Shown here: piece after piece, positions 24,032 to 40,140 of the stretch
Position numbering within the stretch: the first letter of the stretch is position 1
Layout of the letters: every line of letters begins with the position of its first letter
DNA from: an uncultured delta proteobacterium
GTDB lineage: Bacteria > Desulfobacterota > RBG-13-43-22
NCBI GenBank assembly: GCA_963843145.1
Contig: CAWJJC010000028.1
Location: 480,001 to 544,000 of the forward strand
DNA: 64,000 nt
Reading direction: 5' to 3'
Translations under genes and position numbers: made by a program
The notes under the pieces: model-generated
Database searches by the model: none
What the model saw: only the letters and a program-made list of their open reading frames with translations
What the model was told of the DNA's origin: nothing

Positions 24032-24874
24032 TTAATTCTTATACCCAACGATAATGGACTGGAAACCGTCGTGTGCCAATCGCTTGGCCATTTTTTCCGA
24101 CTCCTCCCGGCTCTTGAAGGGACCGATCCGCACCCGGTACCACAGGCCGCCTTTGGCGGGAAGGTTTTTAACAATTATCTGGGCCTGATAGCCTTTCCCG
24201 GACAACCGTTGGATCACGGTCTGGGCTGTCGCTTCTTCGCGATAGGCTCCTAATTGCAGAACGAAGTCCCCGGTCGGCGCCGCCGCGGTCTTGGGCGGCT
24301 CGGCTATCTTCTTCTCCGCTGGGGCCGGCGTTTTGCCCAGAACCGGTTCCGCAGGTTTAGGGGCGGCGGCTTTGGGCGTCTCCGATATCTTTTTTCCCAG
24401 GGGGTGGAGCGCCGGTGCCTGGCTTCCCGCCGTTGGCGCAGGCTTGATCGCCGGCGGGTGCGTTTCCAGCGCTTTCGGCGCCTCCGCTGAGGCTTTGGTT
24501 TCCTGTGGAGAAGTGGTGGTCGGGGGAAGGGTAGGCTGGGGCACCTTCATGACCAGGGGTTCCTGGGTTTTTTTGGAGAGGTGATCGTAAAAATCCAGTT
24601 GCGGTTTCAAAATTGGGTCGGAAGCAGTGGTTTTCCCCTGCTCGACTCCCAAGTATTTATCCATCAGGCTCTTTTTTTCCTGCTGGAGTTTCTGAATCTG
24701 GGTCTTCATGGCCGAGGTGATTGTGTCGGCCACGATCCCCCGGCCGACGATAATGCCCAGGATAAACACCCAGGCTAGTACAAACAAAACCGCGGCGATG
24801 CTGACCAGCAACTGGGTCCGACTCATCTCAATAAAAAAGCGCTTTCGGCGGTTATAGGGTTGTGGTTGGGCCAT
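24032..24874 (-). CDS. SPOR-domain cell division protein (FtsN/DedD-like)
   Basis: One TM helix, a Pro/Ala linker, and the C-terminal LQLGAY...WYRVRIGPF SPOR domain; follows argS. Confidence 0.9.
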   Translation of the reverse strand: MAQPQPYNRRKRFFIEMSRTQLLVSIAAVLFVLAWVFILGIIVGRGIVADTITSAMKTQIQKLQQEKKSLMDKYLGVEQGKTTASDPILKPQLDFYDHLSKKTQEPLVMKVPQPTLPPTTTSPQETKASAEAPKALETHPPAIKPAPTAGSQAPALHPLGKKISETPKAAAPKPAEPVLGKTPAPAEKKIAEPPKTAAAPTGDFVLQLGAYREEATAQTVIQRLSGKGYQAQIIVKNLPAKGGLWYRVRIGPFKSREESEKMAKRLAHDGFQSIIVGYKN

Positions 24875-24928: not shown

Positions 24929-26578
24929 CTACATTTTATCAGGGGCTTCCACTCCCAAGATCAACAGGGCGTTTTTTATTACCAAGCCGGTGGCTTTGGC
25001 CAACAGGAGTCGGGCCTGGGTCAATTCCTGGTCATCGCTGATAAACCGCTGATGGTTGTAATACTGGTGAAACATCCCGGCCAGTTCACCTAGATAGGCG
25101 GTCAGGCGGTGGGGTTCCAGGTTCATGGCGGCCTGAAAAATGATCTCCGGGTATTCGGTCAACTGTTTGCAGAGCCCCCGTTCTTCCGGCAGGTCCAGCC
25201 GGTGCAGGCTGTTGAAGCCCAGCGGGTTGCTGTCCAGACCTTGCGACTCAGCGACCCGCAGCACGCTTTGGACCCGGGCATGAGCATACTGAACGTAATA
25301 GACCGGGTTTTCCAGGCCTTGTTTCTTGGCCACTTCCAGGTCAAAATCCAAAGGGCTGTCGGACCGGCGCGTTAAGAAGATGTAGCGGGCGGCGTTTTTG
25401 CCCACTTCGTCGATGACCTCCCGCAAGGTGACAAATTCCCCGGCCCGGGTGGACATGGCCACCGGTTTGCCCTCCCGCAGGAGATTGACCAGTTGAACCA
25501 GGACCACGGTCAAACGCTCGGGATCGATCTGTCGGCTTTTTAAGGCGGCCTTGATCCGGGGTACATACCCGTGGTGATCCGCCCCCCAGATATCGATGAC
25601 CCGGTCGAAGCCCCGGTCGAACTTCTGGAGGTGATAGGTGATGTCCGAGGCGAAGTAGGTTTTGGCCCCATTGGAGCGGACCACGACCCGATCTTTTTCG
25701 TCTCCGAAGGCGCTACTTTTGAACCACAAGGCGCCCTCTTCCTGGTAAAACAAACCTCGGTCCCGCATCTCCCGGATCAGCTCATCGACCAAACCTTGGG
25801 TATAGAGACTTTCCTCGCTGAACCAGCAGTCGAAAGGGATCCCAAAGCGGTCCAGGTCTTCTTTAATCCCGGCCAGGATTTTTTCCCGGCCTTGCTGAGA
25901 AAAAAAAGTCAGATCCGCTTGGGTCCATTCTTTGTTTTCCTGGATAATTTCCCGGGCGATTTCTTTAATATACTCCCCCTGATAACCGTTTTCTGGAAAT
26001 TCCACCGGCTCCCCGTTCAATTCCCGGGCCCGGGTCTGGATGGAACGGCCCAGGGTCTCCATCTGGGTGCCCACGTCGTTCAGGTAATATTCGGTCTCCA
26101 CCGCGTGTCCGGTGGCCCTCAAGAGGTTGGCCAAGGCCCCGCCCAGGGCCGCACCCCGGCCGTGGCCGATATGCAGGGGGCCGGTGGGATTGGCGCTCAC
26201 GAATTCCACCTGAATCTTTTGTCCCGCACCCCAAGCGGCCTGGCCAAAAGAGGCTCCGTCCCGGATAATGAGCGGCAGGGTTTCCTGGAAGGCCTGATCC
26301 TTCAGGTAGAAATTAATAAATCCGGGTTTGGCCACCTCCACCCGGTCCAGCCAGGTCAGGTTGTCAGGGATTTGCCGGACAAGTTCCTCAGCGATTTGCA
26401 AAGGCGATCGCTTCATTACCTTGGCCAAACCCATGGCCACATTGGTGGCATAATCGCCATATTGCGCATTTTTGGGTATGGAAAAAAGCACCGGAACGGT
26501 TTCCAGGGACTCCGGGCCTCCTGGACCGCCGATCTGTTTTAAGGCGTTCCGGATCAGTTCAACCAGTTGCTCACGCAA
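24929..26578 (-). CDS. argS: Arginine--tRNA ligase
   Basis: VEFVSANPTGPLHIGHGRGA, WGADHHGY, MSTRAG, YYVQYAHAR. Confidence 0.99.
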   Translation of the reverse strand: MREQLVELIRNALKQIGGPGGPESLETVPVLFSIPKNAQYGDYATNVAMGLAKVMKRSPLQIAEELVRQIPDNLTWLDRVEVAKPGFINFYLKDQAFQETLPLIIRDGASFGQAAWGAGQKIQVEFVSANPTGPLHIGHGRGAALGGALANLLRATGHAVETEYYLNDVGTQMETLGRSIQTRARELNGEPVEFPENGYQGEYIKEIAREIIQENKEWTQADLTFFSQQGREKILAGIKEDLDRFGIPFDCWFSEESLYTQGLVDELIREMRDRGLFYQEEGALWFKSSAFGDEKDRVVVRSNGAKTYFASDITYHLQKFDRGFDRVIDIWGADHHGYVPRIKAALKSRQIDPERLTVVLVQLVNLLREGKPVAMSTRAGEFVTLREVIDEVGKNAARYIFLTRRSDSPLDFDLEVAKKQGLENPVYYVQYAHARVQSVLRVAESQGLDSNPLGFNSLHRLDLPEERGLCKQLTEYPEIIFQAAMNLEPHRLTAYLGELAGMFHQYYNHQRFISDDQELTQARLLLAKATGLVIKNALLILGVEAPDKM

Positions 26579-26874: not shown

Positions 26875-27567
26875 ATGGTTGAAGAACTGGAATGGCAGAC
26901 CCGAAGAGATCGAATCAATAAAAGCTGGTTTACGGAGAATCCCATTAACATTGAGCGATTGCGGATTTATCAGCGGGAGGCTATCCAGGCCACCGAATCC
27001 GCAATCGCCAAAGGAAAAAGGGCCTTGCTTCTGGCCATGGCCACCGGGACCGGAAAAACCTTTCTCACGGTGGCCCAAATCTACCGCCTCCTGGAATCCA
27101 AAGCTTTTCGCCGTATTCTCTTTCTGGTTGATCGAAGAGCTTTGGCCGCCCAGGCCGTCCGGGAATTCGCTTCCTTCAAGGCCCCTAAAGGCAACAAATT
27201 CAGTCAGGAATATGAGGTCTTTAGTCAAAAATTCCGGCGTGAGGACTTTGAAGACGACAAACCTTTTGATCCCGGGAAAAAGAACGGGGCCAATGAGGTC
27301 ATCCAAACCCGTGTCGTCTCGGTGGGCCTGATGAATAAGACACAAGTCCATCCCCGGGAGGTCTTTGCCGACCCAATAACCGATCGGGCCTCGGCGGTCA
27401 TCGTCGCTCACAATCATCCGGCCGGCGGAACATCCCCCAGTCAGGAGGATAGGAAAGTGACCCAACAACTGAAAGCCGCGGGAGAGACACTCGGTATTCG
27501 CCTTCTGGATCATATTATTTTTGACCAAAAGGGCTATTAAAGCTTTCTGGGAAAAGGGGAGATCTAA
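26875..27567 (+). pseudogene. In-frame chimera of a type I restriction HsdR fragment and a RadC JAB domain, with a premature stop
   Basis: YQREAI...MATGTGKT...ILFLVDRRAL is fused to VHPREVF...AHNHPAG..PSQED...LLDHII. TAA at 27538 is followed in frame by SFLGKGEI*, the usual RadC tail. Confidence 0.75.
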
Positions 27568-28205
27568 AAGTCGGTTTTTGCTTCTTCATCCAAAACGGCT
27601 CGGATGGATTCGGCGGAAATCCGGCCTATCCCCTCCACGCGCATCAATTCGCTAATGGTGGCGTTCATAATTTTGGCAATGGAACCAAAATGCTCCAGCA
27701 GCCTCTTCGCCATAGTGGGCCCCACTTGGGGAAATCCTTGGAGGATGTATAATTGCCTCGATTTCAGCCTTTTCGGCCGATAGCCTCCGCGTAGAGGAAC
27801 TACGTCCTGGCCGCTTTCCTCCTGTCCTCCCAGCATTAGAAAAATATCCCTGGTCTCTTCTTTGGAGTTGGAGAAGATGACGGGAACATACCAGATTGCC
27901 TTGGTGGATAAAAGGGCCCCCTTGATCGCCTGAGGATCAAAAGCCAGGTCAGTTTTATAGGGATTGCCCTCGATCAGCAGCAGGGGGCGTGAACAATATT
28001 TTTTCAGGTTGGAGAGCTGTTTGAACAAACGATCGTCAATAATGGAAATCAGAAAATCTCTGGCCGTCTTTCTTTCGATGGTGATCGCTTCATTGATAAT
28101 ATAATCGCCACAGCGAAGCTTTCCAATTTCAAGGCTAAGCTCCGCTTGCTGGAGCAGATCGACCAGCCCGGAAGCCCGTTCACGAAAATCCATTCGAATC
28201 TTCAT
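27564..28205 (-). CDS. ERCC4/XPF-family nuclease with tandem HhH motifs
   Basis: DFRE, GDY, IERKT..DF..SI.DDRLFKQ, LLIEG, PQVGP..AKRLL, VEGIG. Confidence 0.9.
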   Translation of the reverse strand: MKIRMDFRERASGLVDLLQQAELSLEIGKLRCGDYIINEAITIERKTARDFLISIIDDRLFKQLSNLKKYCSRPLLLIEGNPYKTDLAFDPQAIKGALLSTKAIWYVPVIFSNSKEETRDIFLMLGGQEESGQDVVPLRGGYRPKRLKSRQLYILQGFPQVGPTMAKRLLEHFGSIAKIMNATISELMRVEGIGRISAESIRAVLDEEAKTDF

Positions 28206-28283
28206 TATTATTATGGAAAGCAAGATTAAGGCCAACCTCCCTTCCTCGCGCCGGATGACCGGGCAAGGATGAAAATTCAAGTT

Positions 28284-28401: not shown

Positions 28402-28650
28402 AAGACCAAGGATTTATGGGTGTATTGTGAGTCCTTTTGGCTTGATAGTTTTCAGAGTAGGCTTATCCCGCCTATAATAGGATGCCAAAACAAGTGAACT
28501 TTATGCTCACCAGAGTGATCAGTCTGTTTCCGATTTCTTCTGTTCCCGTTACTTTCTTAGCCATTTAATCGTTTTTTGTTGTGGTCTGCTTTTTGAAATA
28601 GAAAAGAGAAAACCAGGGCCTGGGGGCCCACTAAAGAAAGGAGAGCAGGC

Positions 28651-28842
28651 ATGGCGATTTATGATTTGATCTGGAAAGAAGGGGAGGACAAAAGCGGAAA
28701 GGCCCGTTGGTCGAAAGTTGGAATCCTGATGGAAAAAGGGGACGGTAAAAAGTCGGTCAAGCTGACTACCCTTCCGGTAGGGAACTGGGACGGCTGGCTG
28801 GTGGTGTCGGAAAGGAAGGAGAGGGACGATCCGCACTTTTAA
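28651..28842 (+). CDS. 63-aa hypothetical protein with an acidic-Phe C-terminus
   Basis: RBS AAGGAG; beta-strand pattern WSKVG...VKL..LP...WDGWLVV; ends DDPHF. Confidence 0.75.
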   Translation: MAIYDLIWKEGEDKSGKARWSKVGILMEKGDGKKSVKLTTLPVGNWDGWLVVSERKERDDPHF

Positions 28843-28864
28843 TCGACCGTTATCGTCGGGAAAT

Positions 28865-28900
28865 GGAGCGCCCCTGCACCTTTTCCGGATGGGGGCGCTC
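28865..28900 (+). terminator. GC-rich hairpin after the 63-aa gene
   Basis: ggagcgcccc ... ggggcgctcc; no clear U-tract. Confidence 0.45.
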
Positions 28901-28954
28901 CGGCAGGTGTCCATGGGCCGGTAGGGACTGGTGAAACGGTTAATGAAGAAGACG

Positions 28955-29435
28955 AACATCGAACATCGAACGTCCAACATCGAACATCGAATGGTTGGTG
29001 GGAAGAGATGAATGAACGGACTTATGATCTGGAGGAAAGGCTGCTCGAGTACTCGGTCAGAATCATAAAAATCGTTGGAAGGCTTCCAAATAATAGGACA
29101 ATCAGCCATATCGCGGGCCAATTGTTAAGATCCGGAACTGCACCATACCCAAACCACGGTGAGGCCCAGGCAGCGGAGTCCCCAAGGGATTTTATCCATA
29201 AGCTTCGTATTTCATTAAAGGAACTTCGGGAGACCCAGAGATGGTTAAAACTTGTTCAGCGGCTACCTCTCATCAAAAGCCCTGAACTACTAAATGCTAT
29301 TCTGGAGGAAACAGAAGAGTTAATCAGGATTTTCGTTGCGAGTATCAAAACGGCTGAAAAGGGACAGAAATAGGTGTCTGGTATTGGATTTTGTTTCATT
29401 CGATGTTGGATGTTGGACGTTCGATGTTCAATGTT
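28955..29435. repeat. Inverted arrays of AACATCG heptamers flanking the four-helix-bundle gene
   Basis: The left arm (28955-28993) and right arm (29397-29435) are reverse complements over 39 bp with 2 mismatches. Confidence 0.9.
29008..29373 (+). CDS. Four-helix-bundle protein (TIGR02436 / 23S rRNA IVP / Avd-like)
   Basis: QLLRSGT...N.GEAQAAES.RDFIHKL.ISLKELRET.RWL. Confidence 0.92.
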   Translation: MNERTYDLEERLLEYSVRIIKIVGRLPNNRTISHIAGQLLRSGTAPYPNHGEAQAAESPRDFIHKLRISLKELRETQRWLKLVQRLPLIKSPELLNAILEETEELIRIFVASIKTAEKGQK

Positions 29436-31773: not shown

Positions 31774-34422
31774 TTATTCGTTAGAAGAGCCGATCCAGTC
31801 ATAGACTCCGCTCAAGGTTTTTTCCAGCAGGTCGGGTTGGTTTCCGCCGGCCTGAGCCATATCCGGCCGGCCTCCTCCGTCACCCCCCAACGCCTGGGCC
31901 AACCTTTTAACAATCTTGCCGGCATGAAACCGGGGCAGAAGATCTTTGGTGACTACCGCCACCAGCAGAACTTTCTCCCCTTGAACCCCGCCCAAAATAA
32001 CAATCCCCGAAGCCAGCCGGTCTCGCAGGGAATCGGCCAAATCCCGTAGTTCCTTGGCCTCCCCGGAGGGAACGGTGGAGGCTAAAACCTTGACCCCCCG
32101 GACTTCCCGGGTCTTGGTCAAAATGGATTCCACTCCGCCTCCGGCCAGGAGGGACTTGTTCAGGCGGGCGATGGTCCGCTCCAATTCCTTCTGCTGAATT
32201 AAGAGTTTTTCAACCCGGAGGGGGAGTTCATCGACTCCGCTTTTCAATATTTCGGCCAAGGCCTGCATCTGGTCTTCCTGCCGGTGCAGGTGTTCCAGCG
32301 CCTCCTGGCCGGTCAGGGCTTCGATGCGCCGGACCCCGGCGGCAATGCTGCCCTCCGAGAGGATCTTGAAGAACCCGATGTTCCCGGTCCGCAGGGTGTG
32401 CGTCCCTCCGCATAATTCCCGGCTGAAGTCTCCCATGCGCACCAGGCGGACCCGATCCCCGTAGCGTTCTTCAAACAAGGCCATGGCCCCTTCGGCCACG
32501 GCTTGATCGAAATCTTTCACCTCGGTAGTGATCGGCAGGTTTTGTCGGATGAGGTCATTGACCATATCCTCCACCTGGCGGAGTTCCTCCCGAGTCGGCG
32601 CCGAAAAACAGGTAAAATCAAAACGCAGTCTTTTGGGCGTTACCAGGGAACCGGCCTGCTTCACCTGTTCGCCCAGGACGCGGCGTAGGGCTCCGTGCAG
32701 CAGATGGGTGGTGGAGTGGTTGTTGGCCGTCGCGGTACGCCAATCGAGGGCTACGGAAAGGTCGGCCTGATCCCCCACCTGCAGGAGGCCTTCCCGGATG
32801 GGACCGCGGTGCAGAACGGTTTTATTGGGCAGGGCCGTGGTTTCTTCGACCACCATCCAGCCCCGGTTGGTGGTAATCGTGCCTTGATCGCCCGTCTGGC
32901 CCCCCGATTCGGCATAGAATGGGGTGGCGGAAACCACCACTTCCACCTCGGCCGGCTCCTGAGCGGATTCTGTTGCCCGTCCGCCCTGGATGATGGCCAG
33001 AATCGTGGCCCGGGTTTCTAAGGTCTCGTAGCCCAGAAACTCGGTCTTCAGGTCCTGGGTCATCAGGTGGCGGTAGACCTCCCGGACCTCCCGATCGCCG
33101 CTTCCCTTCCAGGACTGTCGGGACATCTCCCGCTGTTTGGCCATTTGCTCCTGGAAACCGGGTTCGTCCATGACCAACCGATGGTCCAGACTGATGTCCT
33201 GAATTATATCCAGCGGAAACCCATAGGTATCGTAAAGTTTAAAAATCAAGGTCCCCGACAAGGTGTTCTCGCCTTCCTGTTTCAGCCGTTCGATTTCCTC
33301 GTACAGCAGCTTCAAACCGAAATCAAGGGTTTCCAGGAAGCGCTCTTCCTCCTTCTGGATCACCTGGGTAGTCAGGGCCAGATTTTCTTTGACCTCGGGA
33401 TAAAGGTCTCCCATAGTCTCGGCCACCACCTGGGCCAGCCGATATAAAAAAGGCTGGTTGAGTCCGAGGACTTTCCCGTGCCGGGCGGCTCGGCGCAGGA
33501 TGCGTCGCACCACATAGCCCCGACCTTCATTGGAGGGCAGTGCCCCGTCGGCCAGCAGAAAGGCCAGGGCCCGGCTGTGGTCGGCGATGACCTTGATGGA
33601 AACATCCAGGTTTTCCGCCCGGCCGATGGCGACCCCGGAAAACGCCTCAATGGCCTGGATGATGGGCTGAAAGAGGTCACTGGAAAAGTTATTCGGCGCC
33701 CCCTGGAGGACGGCGGTGATCCGCTCCAGACCCATACCGGTATCGATGCTGGGCCGGGGCAGGGGATTTAAACGGCCCTCCGCGTCCCGATTGAACTGCA
33801 TGAAGACCAAGTTCCAGAGCTCCAGGTAGCGATCGCAATCACATCCCGGGGCGCAATCCGCCCGCTGGCATCCGAATTCGGGGCCTTGGTCGATCAGGAT
33901 TTCCGAGCACGGTCCGCAGGGGCCGGTATCGCCCATGGCCCAGAAATTATCTTTTTCACCGAGCCGGACGATTTTCTCCGGGGGCAATCCGATTTCCTGC
34001 TGCCAGAGTTGATAGGCCTCATCGTCCTGTTCGTAGACCGAGGCGTATAGCTTAGTCTGGGGCAAGCCGTACACCCGGGTCAGGAGGTCCCAGGCAAAAC
34101 GGATGGCTTCAGACTTAAAGTAGTCGCCGAAGGAAAAATTGCCCAACATTTCAAAAAAGGTGTGATGACGGGCGGTGCGGCCCACATTTTCCAGGTCATT
34201 GTGTTTGCCCCCGGCCCGGACGCACTTCTGGCTGGAGGCCGCCCGGGAGTAGTCCCTTTTTTCTTCACCCAAAAAAACCCGTTTAAAAGGCACCATCCCG
34301 GCATTGGTGAACAGCAGGGACGGGTCATCCCGGGGGATCAAGGAGGCGCTGCGGACTACTTCATGGCCCGCTTCCTTAAAAAAATCCAAAAAGGCTTGCC
34401 GAATTTCTTTTCCTGTCTTCAA
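31774..34422 (-). CDS. alaS: Alanine--tRNA ligase
   Basis: LLFTNAGM, HHTFFEMLGNFSFGDYFK, HSTTH, ELCGGTH, GGGRPDMAQAG. Confidence 0.99.
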   Translation of the reverse strand: MKTGKEIRQAFLDFFKEAGHEVVRSASLIPRDDPSLLFTNAGMVPFKRVFLGEEKRDYSRAASSQKCVRAGGKHNDLENVGRTARHHTFFEMLGNFSFGDYFKSEAIRFAWDLLTRVYGLPQTKLYASVYEQDDEAYQLWQQEIGLPPEKIVRLGEKDNFWAMGDTGPCGPCSEILIDQGPEFGCQRADCAPGCDCDRYLELWNLVFMQFNRDAEGRLNPLPRPSIDTGMGLERITAVLQGAPNNFSSDLFQPIIQAIEAFSGVAIGRAENLDVSIKVIADHSRALAFLLADGALPSNEGRGYVVRRILRRAARHGKVLGLNQPFLYRLAQVVAETMGDLYPEVKENLALTTQVIQKEEERFLETLDFGLKLLYEEIERLKQEGENTLSGTLIFKLYDTYGFPLDIIQDISLDHRLVMDEPGFQEQMAKQREMSRQSWKGSGDREVREVYRHLMTQDLKTEFLGYETLETRATILAIIQGGRATESAQEPAEVEVVVSATPFYAESGGQTGDQGTITTNRGWMVVEETTALPNKTVLHRGPIREGLLQVGDQADLSVALDWRTATANNHSTTHLLHGALRRVLGEQVKQAGSLVTPKRLRFDFTCFSAPTREELRQVEDMVNDLIRQNLPITTEVKDFDQAVAEGAMALFEERYGDRVRLVRMGDFSRELCGGTHTLRTGNIGFFKILSEGSIAAGVRRIEALTGQEALEHLHRQEDQMQALAEILKSGVDELPLRVEKLLIQQKELERTIARLNKSLLAGGGVESILTKTREVRGVKVLASTVPSGEAKELRDLADSLRDRLASGIVILGGVQGEKVLLVAVVTKDLLPRFHAGKIVKRLAQALGGDGGGRPDMAQAGGNQPDLLEKTLSGVYDWIGSSNE

Positions 34423-34458
34423 AGGTGTTCCTCTCTTTAGGTGATCGATCGGCCGCCC

Positions 34459-35475
34459 CTACTTTTCTTCCGGCTCTTTGATTAAACCATAGGTTTGCTT
34501 TACTTTCAATTCGATTTCCTCCAAAGTGGAGGGATGTTCCTTTAGATAGACTTTGGCATTTTCCCTTCCCTGCCCGATCCGGTCTCCCCCGTATGAGTAC
34601 CAGGCCCCGCTTTTTTCGACGATATCATGGGCCACCCCCAGATCAAGTATATCTCCGACCCGGGAAATCCCTTCCCCGTAAATAATATCGAACTCGGCCT
34701 CTTTGAAAGGAGGGGCGATCTTATTCTTGACTACTTTGACGCGGGTCCGGTTGCCGATGATTTCCTGACCATCCTTGATGGCCGCCAACTTGCGGATATC
34801 CAGACGCAGGGAGGCATAAAATTTTAGGGCATTCCCCCCGGTGGTAGTTTCCGGATTTCCGAACATGACCCCGATCTTCATCCGGATCTGGTTGATAAAT
34901 ATCAGGGAGGTATGGGTTTTGCTAATGGTTCCGGTCAATTTGCGCAGGGCCTGGGACATGAGGCGAGCCTGGAGACCCATGTGGGAGTCCCCCATTTCCC
35001 CTTCGATTTCCGCGCGGGGGACCAAGGCGGCCACCGAGTCCACCACCACCACGTCTATGGCGCCGCTGCGCACCAGGATCTCAGCGATTTCCAGGGCCTG
35101 TTCGCCGTTGTCCGGCTGGGAAACCAAGAGTTCGTCACAGTTGACCCCCAGTTTATTGGCATAGATCACATCAAGGGCGTGTTCGGCATCGATAAAGGCC
35201 GCCAAGCCGCCTTTTTTCTGGGCCTCGGCGATGGTGTGCAGTGCCAGGGTGGTTTTCCCGGAAGATTCCGGACCATAGATTTCGATGACCCGCCCCCGGG
35301 GTATTCCCCCAATGCCGGTGGCAATATCCAAAGACAAGGAGCCCGTGGAGATAACCGGCACATCCGCGGTCAAGCCCTCGGAACCCAGGCGCATGATCGC
35401 CCCTTTCCCAAATTGCTTTTCAATCTGGCCCATGGCCATATCCACGGCTTTGTTTTTTTCCAGTTCGGCTTTCAT
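34459..35475 (-). CDS. recA: Recombinase A
   Basis: [25 protein letters not shown]. Confidence 0.99.
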
Positions 35476-35486
35476 AGTCTCCTCCC

Positions 35487-36053
35487 TTATTCTCCTTTAA
35501 GCGGAAATGAACAAATTTTACTATAAACAGGTCCGAAGGGCTTTAAATCACTTTTATAAAGAATGATTTCCTCCACAGCAAACGGTTCCGACTCCTCCTC
35601 TGCCCAAGCGGAAAGGCGCTGGAATAGTCTTTCGTTGGGTTGGTTGGTTTTATTCCGGCCTAAGGTCAGGTGCGGATGAAAGGAGCGATCCTCCCTGGCG
35701 ATTCCGATTTGTTCATAGGCGTCTTCCAAGGCCTCCACTAGCTTCAGAAGCGCATCCAAATCACGATTTAACCCGGCCCAAATGATCCGGGGCCGGCGGA
35801 TATGGGGAAACCCGCCCATCCCTTTGAGTGTTAAACTAAAAGGTTTATTTTCCAAGATAACCTTTTGTGAAACCTCACTAATTTCATCCACTTGTTCCGT
35901 AGAAATTTTGCCAAAGAACTTTAACGTCAGGTGAATTAGCCGGGGGTCAACCCACTTGATCCCGGAGGTGCCCGGACTCAGTATTCGGATCTGTTCGGCC
36001 AATCGTTCCTTTGCGGCTGTAGGCAAATCAATAGCTAAAAAGGAACGGAACAA
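35487..36053 (-). CDS. thpR: RNA 2',3'-cyclic phosphodiesterase
   Basis: Two HxT motifs (HLTLKF, HLTLGR); lies between cinA and recA. Confidence 0.92.
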
Positions 36054-36083
36054 ATGGTTTTACCCCAATCCATTGGGCGGGGC

Positions 36084-37364
36084 TTAATCGCCGACGGTTG
36101 GCTGACGGATTTTGCCAAATCCATCAGCCAACAGATATCGCCGCACCCAGTCTAAGGCGGTATAGGCGGTCAAGATCTTGATTTGGCGGCGGCGACCCCC
36201 AAAAAGATACTGTCCAGCCTGGGCTCCTTGAGAGGAGGCTAAGGCAATCCAGACCGTCCCCACCGGTTTTTCCGAGGTGCCGCCCCCGGGTCCGGCAATT
36301 CCGGTCACGGCCAGGCCCAAGTCGGCCCTGCTTTTTTCGAGAATTCCCCGGGCCATGGCCAGGGCAGTTTTTTCACTTACGGCGCCATATCGAGAAAGAA
36401 GGTTGCGGGGCACTCCTAACCAATCCATTTTGGCCCGGTTGCTATAAACGATTACCCCGCCTTCAAAATAAGCAGAGCTTCCCGGAACACTGGTGATTCG
36501 GTGTCCGATCAGCCCCCCGCTGCAGGATTCGGCCACGGATAGGGTCTGCTTTTTATTGGTCAGCAACTCTCCCACGACCTCTTCCAGAGTCTGCTCATTG
36601 CGGGCCACGATGGTATCGCCTAAACGGGCTTCGATCTCAGTCTCCAACTGGTCCAGGAACCGTTCGGCCCGGAAGGCCTGGTTTGTCCGGACCGTAACGG
36701 TCAGATGGTTTTCAGGAAAGTTGGGGTAAAAACCCAATTGCACCGTTCCATCTTTTTGTTCCAGATCCTTCAAACGCTGATTGATCTCATTCTCCAAGAG
36801 GCCGAAGATTTTATAGACCCTTTGTTTCACCACCGGCTGGTGGGGATGGCGCTGAAGCAGAAAAGGGATGATTTGTCGGTCCAAGAGCCGGTGCATTTCG
36901 GCTGGAACTCCCGGCAGGAAGAAAAGCGGTTTGCCCGCTTCTTCCATCAAGAAGCCGCAAGCCTTGGGCCGGGGATGAAATAATTGAACCCCTTCCGGTA
37001 GCAGAGCCAGCTTATCGTAAGTCGGGTCCCAAGGGGTTTTTCTTTTTTTTAAGAATTGTTTGATCCGAGTCTGAAGGCCGAGGTGGAGGTTTAAAGAGCG
37101 ATTAAAGGTCTTGGCGGCCACCTCCGCGGTGATGTCGTCCAGGGTCCCGCCCAGGCCCCCGGTTACCAGGACGGCATCGGCCCTTTTATGGGCCTGCAAA
37201 AGGGTTTTCCGAATTTCTCTAGCCTGGTCGGGGATAAAGTGGATCCGGGTCACCTCAAACCCATAGGAACTGAGCCGTCCGGCGGCATAGCCGGCATTTC
37301 GGTCGAGGACACGCCCGGTGGTCAGTTCATTCCCGATACCGATGATTTCAATTTTAAGGGACAT
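36084..37364 (-). CDS. cinA: Competence/damage-inducible protein A (MoCF domain plus PncC NMN deamidase)
   Basis: IGNEL..G...DRN, TGGLG, LPGVPAEM, AESCSGG, TGIAGPGG. Confidence 0.95.
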   Translation of the reverse strand: MSLKIEIIGIGNELTTGRVLDRNAGYAAGRLSSYGFEVTRIHFIPDQAREIRKTLLQAHKRADAVLVTGGLGGTLDDITAEVAAKTFNRSLNLHLGLQTRIKQFLKKRKTPWDPTYDKLALLPEGVQLFHPRPKACGFLMEEAGKPLFFLPGVPAEMHRLLDRQIIPFLLQRHPHQPVVKQRVYKIFGLLENEINQRLKDLEQKDGTVQLGFYPNFPENHLTVTVRTNQAFRAERFLDQLETEIEARLGDTIVARNEQTLEEVVGELLTNKKQTLSVAESCSGGLIGHRITSVPGSSAYFEGGVIVYSNRAKMDWLGVPRNLLSRYGAVSEKTALAMARGILEKSRADLGLAVTGIAGPGGGTSEKPVGTVWIALASSQGAQAGQYLFGGRRRQIKILTAYTALDWVRRYLLADGFGKIRQPTVGD

Positions 37365-37462
37365 TTTCGAAACCTAATCAAAAACTAGCTGAAATTATTG
37401 ATCCTTATGTTCAAAGGGCAAAGATGAATTTTCAGTTAATTAGGTGTGAGAATCTGGAACTC

Positions 37463-37921
37463 TCATCTCCCTGCCACCCACAGGATCAGTCGCAAAAGGA
37501 TATTGGTGTAGATTCCGGCCAAAACATCATCCAAAACAATACCCCAGCCGCCCGGCATCTCCTGATCGATTTTTCGGATGGGAAAGGGTTTGAAAATATC
37601 CATCAGTCGAAAAATCAGAAAGCCGCCGATTACGGAAAACCAGGTCAGAGGAATCCAGCAGACGGAGGCCAGGTAGCCGACGATTTCGTCCGCCACTACC
37701 CGGGAAGGATCCTTTTGGCCCCAGATTTCGGCGGCTCGACCGGCCACGTAAACAGCCCCTAGAATTAAAAGAACGATGACGCCGCCCTGGACCCCGGGAG
37801 AGTACCGGGAAAGCCAGAAATAAAGAGGGATCCCCCACAAGGTCCCGAGAGTTCCCGACGCCAGGGGAGAATAACCCAGGTAAGCCCCGGAGGCAAAAAA
37901 TTTAATCAGCGACGAGTTCAA
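37463..37921 (-). CDS. pgpA: Phosphatidylglycerophosphatase A
   Basis: GTLGT, DPSRVVADEIVG, FRLMDIFKPFP, DDVLAG. Confidence 0.95.
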   Translation of the reverse strand: MNSSLIKFFASGAYLGYSPLASGTLGTLWGIPLYFWLSRYSPGVQGGVIVLLILGAVYVAGRAAEIWGQKDPSRVVADEIVGYLASVCWIPLTWFSVIGGFLIFRLMDIFKPFPIRKIDQEMPGGWGIVLDDVLAGIYTNILLRLILWVAGR

Positions 37922-38030
37922 AGCCTTCTGTCGCTATCCGCGTTCGCGAGTTTCCCTCCCCGGTTCCCGACCCGGCGGTCTTGGAGCCTATTAGCAGAAC
38001 GGGGGAGGGGATCTCGAAAGCCATAGGCAA

Positions 38031-38059
38031 TTTTTATAATTTTATGGGCCGGTTGTCAA
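38031..38059 (-). promoter_or_regulatory. Candidate sigma70 promoter (P1) for pgpA-cinA-thpR-recA
   Basis: Minus strand TTGACA-N17-TAAAAA. Confidence 0.45.
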
Positions 38060-38081
38060 GATTTCCGATGGAGTAAGTTTT

Positions 38082-38126
38082 ATTATATCGGACTGACAAC
38101 CTGGTGGCAGTCCACTAAGGTATTTT
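38082..38126. promoter_or_regulatory. Palindromic operator GGACTGACA-N6-TGGCAGTCC within back-to-back promoters (candidate WYL site)
   Basis: Palindrome at 38090-38113. Plus strand: TGGCAG-N10-TATTTT. Minus strand: CTGCCA-N17-TATAAT. Confidence 0.6.
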
Positions 38127-38154
38127 ATCCGAAAAAAGGTTGAGGAGGACTTCT

Positions 38155-38304
38155 ATGTCGCAATTGTATTATCAGCAAAAACGGTTTCTCTGGGAATTGA
38201 GCAAAACCCGATTTTATGGGTGGTTGACCTTGGCCTTCTGGGTCCTGTTCTCGGTTTTTAATCTGGGGATCCTGGCGGGATTACTCTGGAAGCACCTTAG
38301 GTAG
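38155..38304 (+). CDS. 49-aa single-pass membrane peptide (not in the ORF track)
   Basis: RBS GAGGAGG; MSQLYYQQKRFLWELSKTRFYGWLTLAFWVLFSVFNLGILAGLLWKHLR. Confidence 0.7.
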   Translation: MSQLYYQQKRFLWELSKTRFYGWLTLAFWVLFSVFNLGILAGLLWKHLR

Positions 38305-38643
38305 AGGGACCGTATTTAGTTTCTTTTTCTGCCGCTTTTCTTTATGGATCTCCCGGCAGAGGGATTCATGCAACATATTCAATTCCAACTGGTCCAAAGG
38401 ATCTTGGGCATTATCAATGGCCCGGTCCAGATAATTCACGATGTCCAGGTCGTCTTCAAAGGGGTTTTCCATGGCGCTTAAAGCCCCCTTATCCCGCGCC
38501 CGCCTGATCCACCGCTTGGCATTTTTCGCCTCCGAGGGCGAAGGCTCGACGGTGTATAATGAATGGCTCAGATCGGTTGGTTTTTTTTCGTCTTCGGCCC
38601 TTTCCAGGGGTTCTTTAATCAGAGGATCGGATGACCTGATCAT
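38281..38643 (-). CDS. Hypothetical helical protein
   Basis: 120-aa ORF with GAGG upstream; no recognisable motif. Confidence 0.5.
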   Translation of the reverse strand: MIRSSDPLIKEPLERAEDEKKPTDLSHSLYTVEPSPSEAKNAKRWIRRARDKGALSAMENPFEDDLDIVNYLDRAIDNAQDPLDQLELNMLHESLCREIHKEKRQKKKLNTVPLPKVLPE

Positions 38644-39093
38644 GCGTCTGCCTCTAAATGGAAATCAGCGTACCGGAAGGGCCGTTGAAAGCGGGGGAGG
38701 AAGCCTGATTTCGGGGGGACCAACAAGGGGATCGGGTAGATCCAATGACAGCCGGCAAAGACCAAGAAACCCGGGCGATCTTGACGATTTCGGGGTAAAT
38801 CGGCCAGCGCCTTAAATGGGTAGACCAAAAAGGAAAGTATAAATAAAATAGCCATAGGTTAAACCGTATCGAATGGTGATTGTCTTTCAAACTGACATTT
38901 CCGCCAACGTACCGAAAGTCGCCTCAGCGCCGCACCTGGTCAGTTATTGGTTAGTCACCCCCTGTGTATGGTTGGGGAGCTCTGTCGTTTGGCTCCCTCA
39001 TGGTAATTTTACTATCGGCTCAACGACTGAAAATCTTAAGGGGTTTTGAGGTATAATGACCGGAGCGGGTTGAAAATTCGTGGAGGGTCAGCC

Positions 39094-40083
39094 ATGTCAT
39101 TCAAATTTGATTCCATGATGATTATCCTGAACAAGGTGGACGGCAGGGAGAAGGTGACGGTCCAGTCGCTTAAAGAGGAACTCGGGGTGAGCGAACGGAC
39201 TGTCCATCGTTACCTGGAAACCCTTCAGTTAAGCGGGTATCCTCTTTTCTATGACCGGGAATCGGAACGGTACGCCTTTCCGGAGGGCTACGGATTGAAG
39301 AAACCGGGATTAACCTTTGAAGAGGGGCTGGCCCTGGCCCTGGCCAAGAAACTGGTGGGGGTCTTAGGGGGGGATTTGGATAAACACCTGGATCGGATCG
39401 GGCAAAAAATGGCCGCCCGGCCCAGGGACGAAACCTCGAAAATATTCGTGCGAGAAGCAGGCCGAGTAAGAGGGGCGGACTTTCTGGAAGCATTAAATCG
39501 GGCCGCCATTAATTTCCAGCGAGTGGAGTTGACCTACCAGGCCCTGTCTTCCCGGAAAAAAACGAAACGGCGGGTGGACCCGGACTATTTGTTTTATCAG
39601 GAAGGCCTGTGGTACCTGCGGGGGTATTGCGCCTTGCGGGAAGATTTCCGGACTTTTGCCCTGGATCAAATTCTTTCCCTGAAAGTATTGGATGAACATT
39701 TTGTACCCAGGAGGCGTCCGGAAGAGGAAGAACTCTCCGCCTCCTTCGGCAGCTTTCTGGATGGGGAGGTGGTAGAAGTGATTCTGCGGTTCGATCCGCT
39801 GATCAAGGGTTATATACAGCGAAAAAAGTGGCATCCCAGCCAGCGGGAAGAGGAACTGCCCGACGGCCGACTGGAGGCGCGGTTCCGCGTGACGGGGATG
39901 GCCGGGATCTCGCGCTGGATCTACCGCTGGCTGCCGCAGGTGGAAGTGGTCGCCCCGCCAGAGCTAAGGGAAAAAATGAAGGAGGACCTGGTCAAGGCGT
40001 TGGGCAAGTATGATCAAGAGGAAAGGTCATTTTCCATGGGTAGACGAACATCGAACATCGAACGTCCAACATCGAAAGATTAA
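39094..40083 (+). CDS. WYL-domain transcriptional regulator (wHTH-WYL-WCX)
   Basis: ELGVSERTVHRYL, R.VDP, WYLRGYC..R.DFRTFALDQI, VEVVAPPELRE. RBS GGAGG. Confidence 0.93.
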   Translation: MSFKFDSMMIILNKVDGREKVTVQSLKEELGVSERTVHRYLETLQLSGYPLFYDRESERYAFPEGYGLKKPGLTFEEGLALALAKKLVGVLGGDLDKHLDRIGQKMAARPRDETSKIFVREAGRVRGADFLEALNRAAINFQRVELTYQALSSRKKTKRRVDPDYLFYQEGLWYLRGYCALREDFRTFALDQILSLKVLDEHFVPRRRPEEEELSASFGSFLDGEVVEVILRFDPLIKGYIQRKKWHPSQREEELPDGRLEARFRVTGMAGISRWIYRWLPQVEVVAPPELREKMKEDLVKALGKYDQEERSFSMGRRTSNIERPTSKD

Positions 40084-40140
40084 GGCAGGTTAGTTTTTCA
40101 TTTGAGGTTGGACGTTCGATGTTCAATGTTCGACGTTCAT
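40047..40140. repeat. Empty copy of the AACATCG heptamer inverted-repeat element
   Basis: AACATCG AACATCG AACGTCC AACATCG ... GGACGTT CGATGTT CAATGTT CGACGTT, with only about 25-30 nt between the arms. Confidence 0.85.

Follow-up and report, generated by a model that had tools for sequence, protein, structure and literature searches.

A candidate WYL operator beside recA and a small gene probably derived from an FtsN-like N-terminus in an uncultured desulfobacterotal genome

The locus and its operator

The stretch of DNA considered here – 64 kb, called the window below, from the 5.35-Mb, 32-contig assembly of a genome that we label G000 – holds a recA operon, a gene for a WYL-domain regulator and, between the two, a palindrome and the gene for a small membrane peptide that is very likely related to the N-terminus of an FtsN-like protein encoded elsewhere in the window. 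The palindrome, with the core ACTGACA-N6-TGGCAGT (38090..38113, no strand assigned), is the predicted site of a WYL homodimer. On the plus strand, it is followed, 10 bp past the proximal half-site, by the -10 element TATTTT (38121..38126), predicted to form a WYL-dependent promoter, then by the ribosome-binding sequence GAGGAGG (38142..38148), 6 nt 5′ of the ATG, and by the gene for the 49-residue, single-pass membrane peptide (38155..38304), a putative truncated SPOR-protein paralogue and predicted division decoy. On the minus strand, the hexamer TAAAAC (38077..38082) lies 10 bp past the other half-site, as a degenerate -10 that possibly gives a WYL-dependent promoter into pgpA–cinA–thpR–recA; that operon is also preceded by a sigma70-type promoter, TTGACA-N17-TAAAAA (38031..38059), which is found family-wide and is likely constitutive. 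The four genes, all on the minus strand, encode phosphatidylglycerophosphatase A (pgpA, 37463..37921; PF04608), a CinA protein with MoCF-like, KH and CinA domains (36084..37364; PF02464, PF00994, PF18146), a ThpR/LigT-type 2H phosphoesterase (35487..36053; PF02834) and RecA (34459..35475; PF00154). The regulator gene (39094..40083, plus strand) encodes 329 residues of the winged helix-turn-helix–WYL–WCX type (HTH_11, WYL and WCX in Pfam) and starts 981 bp from the palindrome. Every coordinate in a first-pass annotation of this DNA proved correct; Pfam agrees with its names for the four operon genes, and the WYL gene near the palindrome, the strong ribosome-binding site and the TGGCAG-N10-TATTTT arrangement ahead of the peptide are all present as it described them.

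Written out, the palindrome is GGACTGACA-N6-TGGCAGTCC, with 8 of 9 complementary arm pairs, and its TGGCAG (38105-38110) is followed by N10 and then by TATTTT. The 14-base core has a single match in the window, where 100 shuffles give 0.01 on average, and the exact word CTG[AC]CA-N6-TG[GT]CAG has two sites in the genome, each within about 2 kb of a WYL gene, which places the palindrome beyond chance. The half-site-plus-minus-10 word alone, TG[TG]CAG-N10-TA-N3-T, matches 29 times in the genome; the signal is therefore carried by the palindrome.

Across 21 genomes of the family, for which the consensus becomes ACTG[AC]CA-N6-TG[GT]CAGT, there are one to three exact sites per genome in 17 (0-1 for the reversed control). 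The operator stands directly 5′ of a WYL homologue in eight family genomes and, with one mismatch, in one genome of another family, and directly 5′ of DUF2779-WYL genes in four genomes. At the 13 sites that can be oriented by such a gene, the side facing the gene has TA at N10 in 13/13 and the full TAnnnT in 12/13, compared with 6/13 and 3/13 on the far side, and all spacings from 6 to 15 other than 10 give a single match; as the genomes concerned are kin, these counts show conservation and are not a statistical test. Both 12 of the 13 gene-oriented sites and, counting the full TAnnnT, 8 of 12 peptide promoters show the palindrome at its set distance from a -10, a -35 being absent. A longer operator pattern that includes the TA matches 11 of 301 genomes of the phylum: eight from this family, two from one other family and one with an equal match in the control. 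Over the 13 loci, then, the palindrome tracks the WYL subfamily across the family at a PafBC-like fixed distance from the -10, and it is very probably the operator of that subfamily.

The regulon that goes with this operator is small. A scoring matrix was built from 21 sites of other genomes, nine of them oriented partly by their -10, which makes it partly circular; in genome G000 it gives scores of 39.5 and 24.3 to a site on contig C10, 30.0 (peptide side) and 24.6 (pgpA side) to the window site, and 21.4 and 15.9 to a site at C27:154736. No further site in the genome rises above the maxima of three shuffled genomes (13.3-15.2). With three sites genome-wide, none before a repair gene except the recA operon, a repair regulon of PafBC size is ruled out and the PafBC-like regulon expected in the first pass was not borne out by the genome scan; the strict PafBC word, TGTCGG-N10-TA-N3-T, has 18 scattered matches in the genome.

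The second exact site, C10:51880, precedes a DUF2779-WYL-Nmad3 cluster, whose WYL protein is 54% identical to that of the window. It belongs to an AT-rich accessory island (L001 6158-9900, which is G000:C10:48157-51899) comprising the operator, a DUF2779 (RNase H-like) gene, the WYL paralogue and Nmad3 – possibly a defence or stress unit. The operator-DUF2779-WYL arrangement recurs in G010, G013 and G014, and DUF2779-WYL in G015. The third site, at C27:154736, precedes an apparently broken ORF6N gene; ORF6N-domain genes are found behind the operator in G006 (twice) and G020 (loci L119, L120, L122 and L131, including the broken G000 copy). Two further genes lie on the side of an operator that has no -10, namely ssb at L109 (G015) and an RNA 2′-phosphotransferase (Tpt1/KptA) gene at L110 (G010).

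The peptide gene and its probable parent

The unannotated 49-residue reading frame that the first-pass annotation picked out has the marks of a conserved coding gene behind an operator. It is present in five of the 21 family genomes, all from the genera g1 and g2; G002 lacks it together with pgpA, the WYL gene and the SPOR N-terminus described below, and the region is probably unassembled there. A protein database holds 17 relatives of 26-81 residues, and peptide loci were found in metagenomes (8, of 341 candidates) and in a collection of species genomes (4 clear ones, of 88), where a fifth match, L223, is 45% identical over 30 residues (E 5e-4). The module of peptide and operator is found in two genera only. 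A phage origin is ruled out by its absence from all 131 candidate stretches of viral contigs. By the ratio of non-synonymous to synonymous substitution (dN/dS), which is 0.075 for G000/G001, 0.068 for G000/G003 and 0.043 for G004/G007, the gene is under purifying selection.

Of the 13 loci, 12 have an operator 42-54 bp 5′ of the peptide start; among these 12, TA stands at N10 in 11 and the full TAnnnT in eight. All 13 have a site containing GGAG ahead of the start. The peptide copy at L103 (1266-1711), whose dN/dS is 0.34, lies downstream of a gene for 93 residues and beside a transposase-like reading frame, which suggests a relocated or decaying copy. A 236-nt contig from one of four metatranscriptomes (shares 0.05-0.08) covers 38094-38329; it begins 5′ of where transcription is predicted to start and could derive from DNA, and it was set aside as evidence.

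The peptide has one hydrophobic helix (19-residue mean hydropathy 2.19), matches no Pfam family and has no match of at least 0.9 in the ESM Atlas (best 0.86, no family). Its homologues were found just in the two genera and in similar metagenome sequences.

What it does resemble lies in the same window. In a tblastn search of the genome with the peptide, the sole non-self match at E < 1 is the N-terminus of a gene on the minus strand, 24032..24874 (E 0.001), directly downstream of argS (24929-26578). Its product, a bitopic SPOR protein of 280 residues, has a short cytoplasmic tail, one transmembrane (TM) helix starting at residue 26, a long linker and a C-terminal SPOR domain (201-276), which amounts to an FtsN-like architecture; it is the putative parent of the peptide and the predicted target of its competition. 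Residues 3-42 of the peptide align with residues 5-44 of the SPOR protein ungapped, with 16/40 identical, and in a profile-profile comparison (hhalign; 17 and 9 sequences) the two reach 95.8% probability and an E value of 6.8e-9. A peptide profile of five sequences picks out the SPOR N-terminus in 17 of 20 family genomes as well as in G000, along with four other weak and unrelated matches; in the reverse direction, when a family profile of the N-terminus is run against 103,384 six-frame segments, the peptide comes next after the SPOR protein itself (E 5.7e-4). Judged from these alignments, we regard homology between the peptide and the N-terminus of the argS-linked SPOR protein as very likely.

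The SPOR N-terminal motif occurs once per genome in 58 of 251 genomes of the phylum and adjoins argS in 28 of 30 loci examined, the remaining two being short contigs. The peptide retains the parent's K-R-F-x-x-E-x-S pattern, with Q7, K9 and L12 invariant in its own tail, and has no periplasmic part of the SPOR protein at all; within its TM helix, the block FSVFNLG is invariant in 17/17 sequences. The region upstream of argS (26875-28280) carries no WYL operator; by eye, we take it to hold a fragmented type I restriction/RadC-like reading frame followed by one for an ERCC4-like nuclease.

The regulator, the recA operon and LexA

All three domains of the regulator score above the Pfam cut-off, which gives it the domain order and the length (about 310-330 residues) of class A WYL activators (DriD/DdaA/SiwR type), and its best relatives of solved structure are DriD (E 1.1e-10) and PafBC (1.6e-10), followed by a 299-residue WYL protein (5.8e-6) and BrxR (5.8e-3). 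In a tree of 17 sequences, it forms a clade (support 0.967) with the proteins of G001, G003, G004, G007 and L101, limited to the genera g1 and g2; operator, peptide and this clade occur together in five of the 21 family genomes. No operator is found upstream of the clade's own WYL gene in its five genomes (400 bp examined; 189 bp in G004), and no other close WYL protein of this subfamily was found in G001, G003, G004 or G007. The WYL gene of G004 and that of G007 each lie on a different contig from the peptide locus. The recognition helix, ERTVHRY, has two arginines four residues apart, R35 and R39, which are conserved in 17/17 aligned sequences, correspond to R46/R50 of PafB and R47/R51 of DdaA, and belong to a helix, ERTVxRY, common to the window protein and its self-regulated homologues. 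Together with Y148, Y174 and R186, they match functional positions of DriD, DdaA and PafB, and Y148, Y174, R186 and F188 align with single-stranded DNA (ssDNA) contacts of DriD. The WYL gene is a single one, with unrelated neighbours and no adjacent pafB-pafC pair. A WYL pseudogene in G001 was considered and ruled out, the stops there being the natural end at residue 308. At 40040-40140, a short repeated element (AACATCGAA-like, with its complement) adds about 20 residues to the C-terminus; similar tails are present in G003 and L101, and similar words near 28549-29121.

On the other side of the operator, the pgpA–cinA–thpR–recA operon is divergent from the peptide gene in the window and in the four long loci checked. 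The promoter proposed for it in the first pass, CTGCCA-N17-TATAAT, is there letter for letter (minus strand, 38110-38082) and is nonetheless ruled out, since its TATAAT occurs in one of 12 loci, that of G000 itself. The TTGACA-N17-TAAAAA element, by comparison, precedes the operon in 12/12 peptide loci, and a similar TTGACA-type element is present in 13 of 14 family genomes that have neither peptide nor operator, so the recA operon has an older promoter of its own; none of the 14 other family loci has an operator 5′ of pgpA. Facing pgpA, the 12 loci have TA at N10 in nine and TAnnnT in three; in the nine with a single operator, the counts are 6/9 and 0/9. The remaining three (G004, G007 and L104) have a second operator that faces pgpA, each with TAAAAT at N10. 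These three provide the best evidence for an input of the WYL regulator to recA, which appears clear there alone. The earlier idea that a single operator serves both directions is uncertain: on the recA side, TAnnnT is confined to the loci with a second operator.

The genome does have a lexA gene. In four of five lexA promoters, TTGACA is closely followed by a perfect palindrome, CCATACA-N2-TGTATGG, which we infer to be the LexA box of this lineage; the candidate box, ACCATACA-AA-TGTATGGT, is at L002 1707-1724 (G000:C27, before lexA) and also at L224-L226. Three relaxed patterns of it give no match in 34400-39100. If the box is indeed LexA's, its absence from this region would put recA and the peptide outside the SOS regulon, in keeping with the LexA-independence that the first-pass annotation had proposed. 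Because no second near-perfect copy was found in the genome, LexA may control little beyond itself.

Between the peptide and the WYL gene lies a gene on the minus strand (38281..38643) for a conserved, all-helical hypothetical protein of 120 residues, most of whose relatives have 95-120. It is convergent with the peptide gene, whose last 24 nt it overlaps in G000 and not in G001 or G003; relative to the WYL gene, it is divergently oriented in g1 and G007, and no operator stands in front of it. Its 32 database relatives share invariant ENPFE and PLDQLEL motifs; a 107-residue part gives a helical model (pLDDT 70) with no PDB match at E 0.001 and no family match. Next to it, a conserved non-coding element (38885..38945, no strand assigned), conserved in 6/6 aligned loci, contains two operator-like half-sites, AACTGAC and GTCAGTT, 42 bp apart, which can pair as a hairpin; a split operator and an RNA leader are both conceivable. 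Rfam has no match on 37880-39120, hence no antisense RNA family, and the reading frames 38640-38855 and 38654-38890 were ruled out as genes, their frames not being kept in G001 or G003.

A possible division checkpoint and known systems

Read together, these elements are best accommodated by a LexA-independent checkpoint like those of DriD and DdaA, with a truncated FtsN decoy as effector – a reading on which, from sequence comparison, we are evenly divided. A natural gene for an FtsN-type fragment under a DriD/DdaA-type operator would be, most simply, a damage-induced decoy. The WYL dimer would bind the palindrome as an activator, in the position used by DriD and PafBC; the signal would be ssDNA arising after damage, which the WYL protein is predicted to sense, and the activated regulator would then switch on the LexA-independent promoter of the peptide. 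The peptide would fill the cytoplasmic or membrane docking site of FtsN, with FtsA, encoded at C22:175943-177160, as first candidate, and as a decoy it would deliver none of the periplasmic activating or SPOR parts, so that division is paused, while the same regulator probably boosts pgpA–cinA–thpR–recA above its constitutive promoter. As to history, a self-regulating WYL gene of accessory islands would have been domesticated in the ancestor of g1 and g2, losing its own operator as operators were gained at the peptide and at the recA operon. In its fullest form – a checkpoint cut from its own target, in which a duplicated 5′ end of an ftsN-like gene, placed under a captured WYL sensor of ssDNA, jams FtsN docking as the sensor induces recA in place of LexA – the proposal is tentative, and we hold it to be somewhat less likely than not.

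Work on E. coli gives this proposal some footing. The tail of FtsN docks in the IA-IC cleft of FtsA, which it brings to form double filaments (bioRxiv 2021.11.08.467742); a fragment with the cytoplasmic and TM parts goes to midcell via FtsA and does not support division (PMC9525312); and activation by FtsN also requires its periplasmic essential domain (PMC11410940). DriD and DdaA each combine a site at, or activation of, recA with a small membrane division inhibitor (PMC4211646, PMC10853764, PMC13010146).

Several points weigh against it. The peptide loci are close kin rather than independent, and one of the 13, L103, has no operator. When the N-terminus profile is made from 22 sequences of other families, the peptide keeps its rank with an E value of just 0.34. 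The parent is called FtsN-like by its architecture, and from this we infer that it is the FtsN of this lineage; the genome has five SPOR matches, the other four of which we take, by eye, to be an RlpA lipoprotein, a protein with an N-terminal SPOR domain and two LysM/ExeA-like proteins. E. coli, for comparison, has four SPOR proteins, one of them FtsN (PMC7642682), and in delta-proteobacteria, proteins of the FtsN-like kind are said to vary greatly (PMC7822825). The R/K-D-Y motif by which E. coli FtsN binds FtsA, described for E. coli and close relatives only (bioRxiv 2021.11.08.467742), is absent from the alignments of both SPOR protein and peptide. In place of the parent's RRKR, the peptide has QQKR, and so fewer basic residues; it has also lost a TM tryptophan that is invariant in the parent family and gained an invariant asparagine, changes by which it may have changed partner. 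In the regulator, two ssDNA-contact arginines of the R-x-F-R-L-x-R strand are replaced by A189 in the whole subfamily and by Q192 in genus g1, which weighs against an unchanged ssDNA pocket; DdaA, with an Arg-to-Ala change in its ssDNA-binding strand, still activates on damage (PMC12392091), and we take its alanine to be probably equivalent in position to A189. Finally, E. coli FtsN(1-32) promotes the active double filament of FtsA (bioRxiv 2021.11.08.467742), so that a fragment could activate rather than block, and our literature search, which took in few subscription papers, found no report of division inhibition by an FtsN fragment.

The alternative that fares best keeps the division target and moves the contact into the membrane: the peptide would work through its TM helix, with the SPOR protein or FtsW/FtsI/FtsQLB as its pairing partner, in the manner of SidA and DidA, and not via FtsA. 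The invariant block does sit in the TM helix, the polar asparagine could drive helix pairing, the basic tail is weaker than the parent's, and DidA and SidA act on FtsN and FtsW in a divisome that stays assembled (PMC4211646). Still, the invariant tail residues and the retained parental pattern speak for a function of the tail, and the midcell location of the E. coli fragment needs FtsA rather than pairing with full-length FtsN (PMC9525312), so that we consider this account unlikely.

A second possibility concerns the regulator, which might be a CapW/BrxR-type repressor, or respond to a signal other than damage (phage or RNA ends), the operator shutting both promoters until induction. Its homologues in accessory, defence-like islands with DUF2779 and Nmad3, the two altered pocket positions, and the position of the operator on top of the -35 region – in the C10 case, overlapping a near-consensus CTGACA-N17-TATAAT – all lend it some weight, and damage induction could go with either an activator or a repressor. 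However, PafBC (PMC5656591) and DriD (PMC13004042), both activators, use just this geometry of N10 to a -10 in the absence of a -35; matches to DriD and PafBC are far above those to CapW and BrxR, and DdaA activates in spite of its own alanine. We consider this account improbable.

It seems about equally improbable that the peptide has left division altogether, its SPOR likeness being due to ancestry or chance. It would then be a small membrane toxin or stress peptide comparable to TisB and DinQ, which act in dormancy, and its size, its one hydrophobic helix, its strong ribosome-binding site and the convergent gene that overlaps its end in G000 would fit such a role. Against this, the overlap is not seen in G001 or G003, Pfam, the ESM Atlas and Rfam provide no corresponding family, and the homology to the SPOR N-terminus is specific and reciprocal; of the first-pass guess of a division inhibitor or toxin, the former part has gained from that homology and the latter has found no support. 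Least probable of all, indeed very unlikely, is a positive or modulating divisome factor – an FtsN-tail mimic that switches FtsA to its active state, aids the restart of division or shifts SPOR partners during repair – for which FtsN(1-32) alone inducing FtsA double filaments in vitro is an argument (bioRxiv 2021.11.08.467742), and which has against it that those small membrane proteins which DriD and DdaA control act as inhibitors, that the essential periplasmic part is missing and that the E. coli fragment fails to support division (PMC9525312).

The scheme of a WYL regulator, recA and a small inhibitor is already known. In the literature search, neither a paralogue of an FtsN N-terminus encoded on its own nor a WYL-recA regulon of this sort in Desulfobacterota came up, and none of SulA, SidA, DidA and AciT is described, in the literature covered, as a copy of a divisome protein. 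A natural decoy made from an FtsN-like N-terminus would, if true, be a new way of building a checkpoint, and the peptide, if a decoy, could serve as a tool to find the partner of the conserved K-R-F-x-x-E-L-S tail in delta-proteobacterial FtsN-like proteins. The locus would also record how a WYL regulator that governed itself in accessory islands came to govern recA, both states being present in one genome, and for this lineage it adds a putative new operator of the WYL type and a candidate LexA box; the reach of all this is two uncultured genera and a three-site regulon.

Among known systems, DriD-DidA of Caulobacter crescentus is similar in its homodimer-type regulator, the best PDB match of the window protein, in a palindrome that overlies the -35 position, its distance to the -10 being constant (PMC13004042), and in having sites at recA as well as at the gene of a small single-TM protein, and a site within a bidirectional promoter. 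It differs in its site, CGAC-N7-GTCG as against TGAC-N8-G[TG]CA here, and the window regulator has no site at its own gene. In DdaA-AciT of Acinetobacter and the Moraxellaceae, a WYL protein activates recA together with a small membrane inhibitor of division, as is proposed here; two arginines of its HTH and two tyrosines used in sensing have counterparts in the window protein, and the Arg-to-Ala change is common to both. Unlike the site here, which abuts the -10, its CGWCA-N5-TGWCG lies about 160 bp upstream of aciT, and it has a large regulon in a host without LexA, where we find three sites and lexA present. DriD- and DdaA-type sites are not matched by CTG[AC]CA-N6-TG[GT]CAG, so the likeness is one of working and no orthologue is assigned. 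The mycobacterial PafBC word, tTGTCRgtg-8 nt-TannnT (PMC5656591), corresponds to TG[TG]CAG-N10-TAnnnT here; PafBC, however, is a heterodimer with a non-palindromic site and about 150 genes, compared with one regulator gene, a full palindrome and three sites, and SiwR, likewise comparable, binds an imperfect palindrome located between -35 and -10. With its palindrome and predicted homodimer, the layout appears closer to DriD/DdaA than to PafBC. On the effector side, residues 1-55 of E. coli FtsN are, like the peptide, a short basic tail with one TM helix, and the peptide is in turn very probably homologous to its host's SPOR N-terminus; it differs from E. coli FtsN in the missing R/K-D-Y, the replaced tryptophan and the gained asparagine, and whereas the E. 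coli fragments are laboratory constructs, it is a natural stand-alone gene under a predicted WYL operator.

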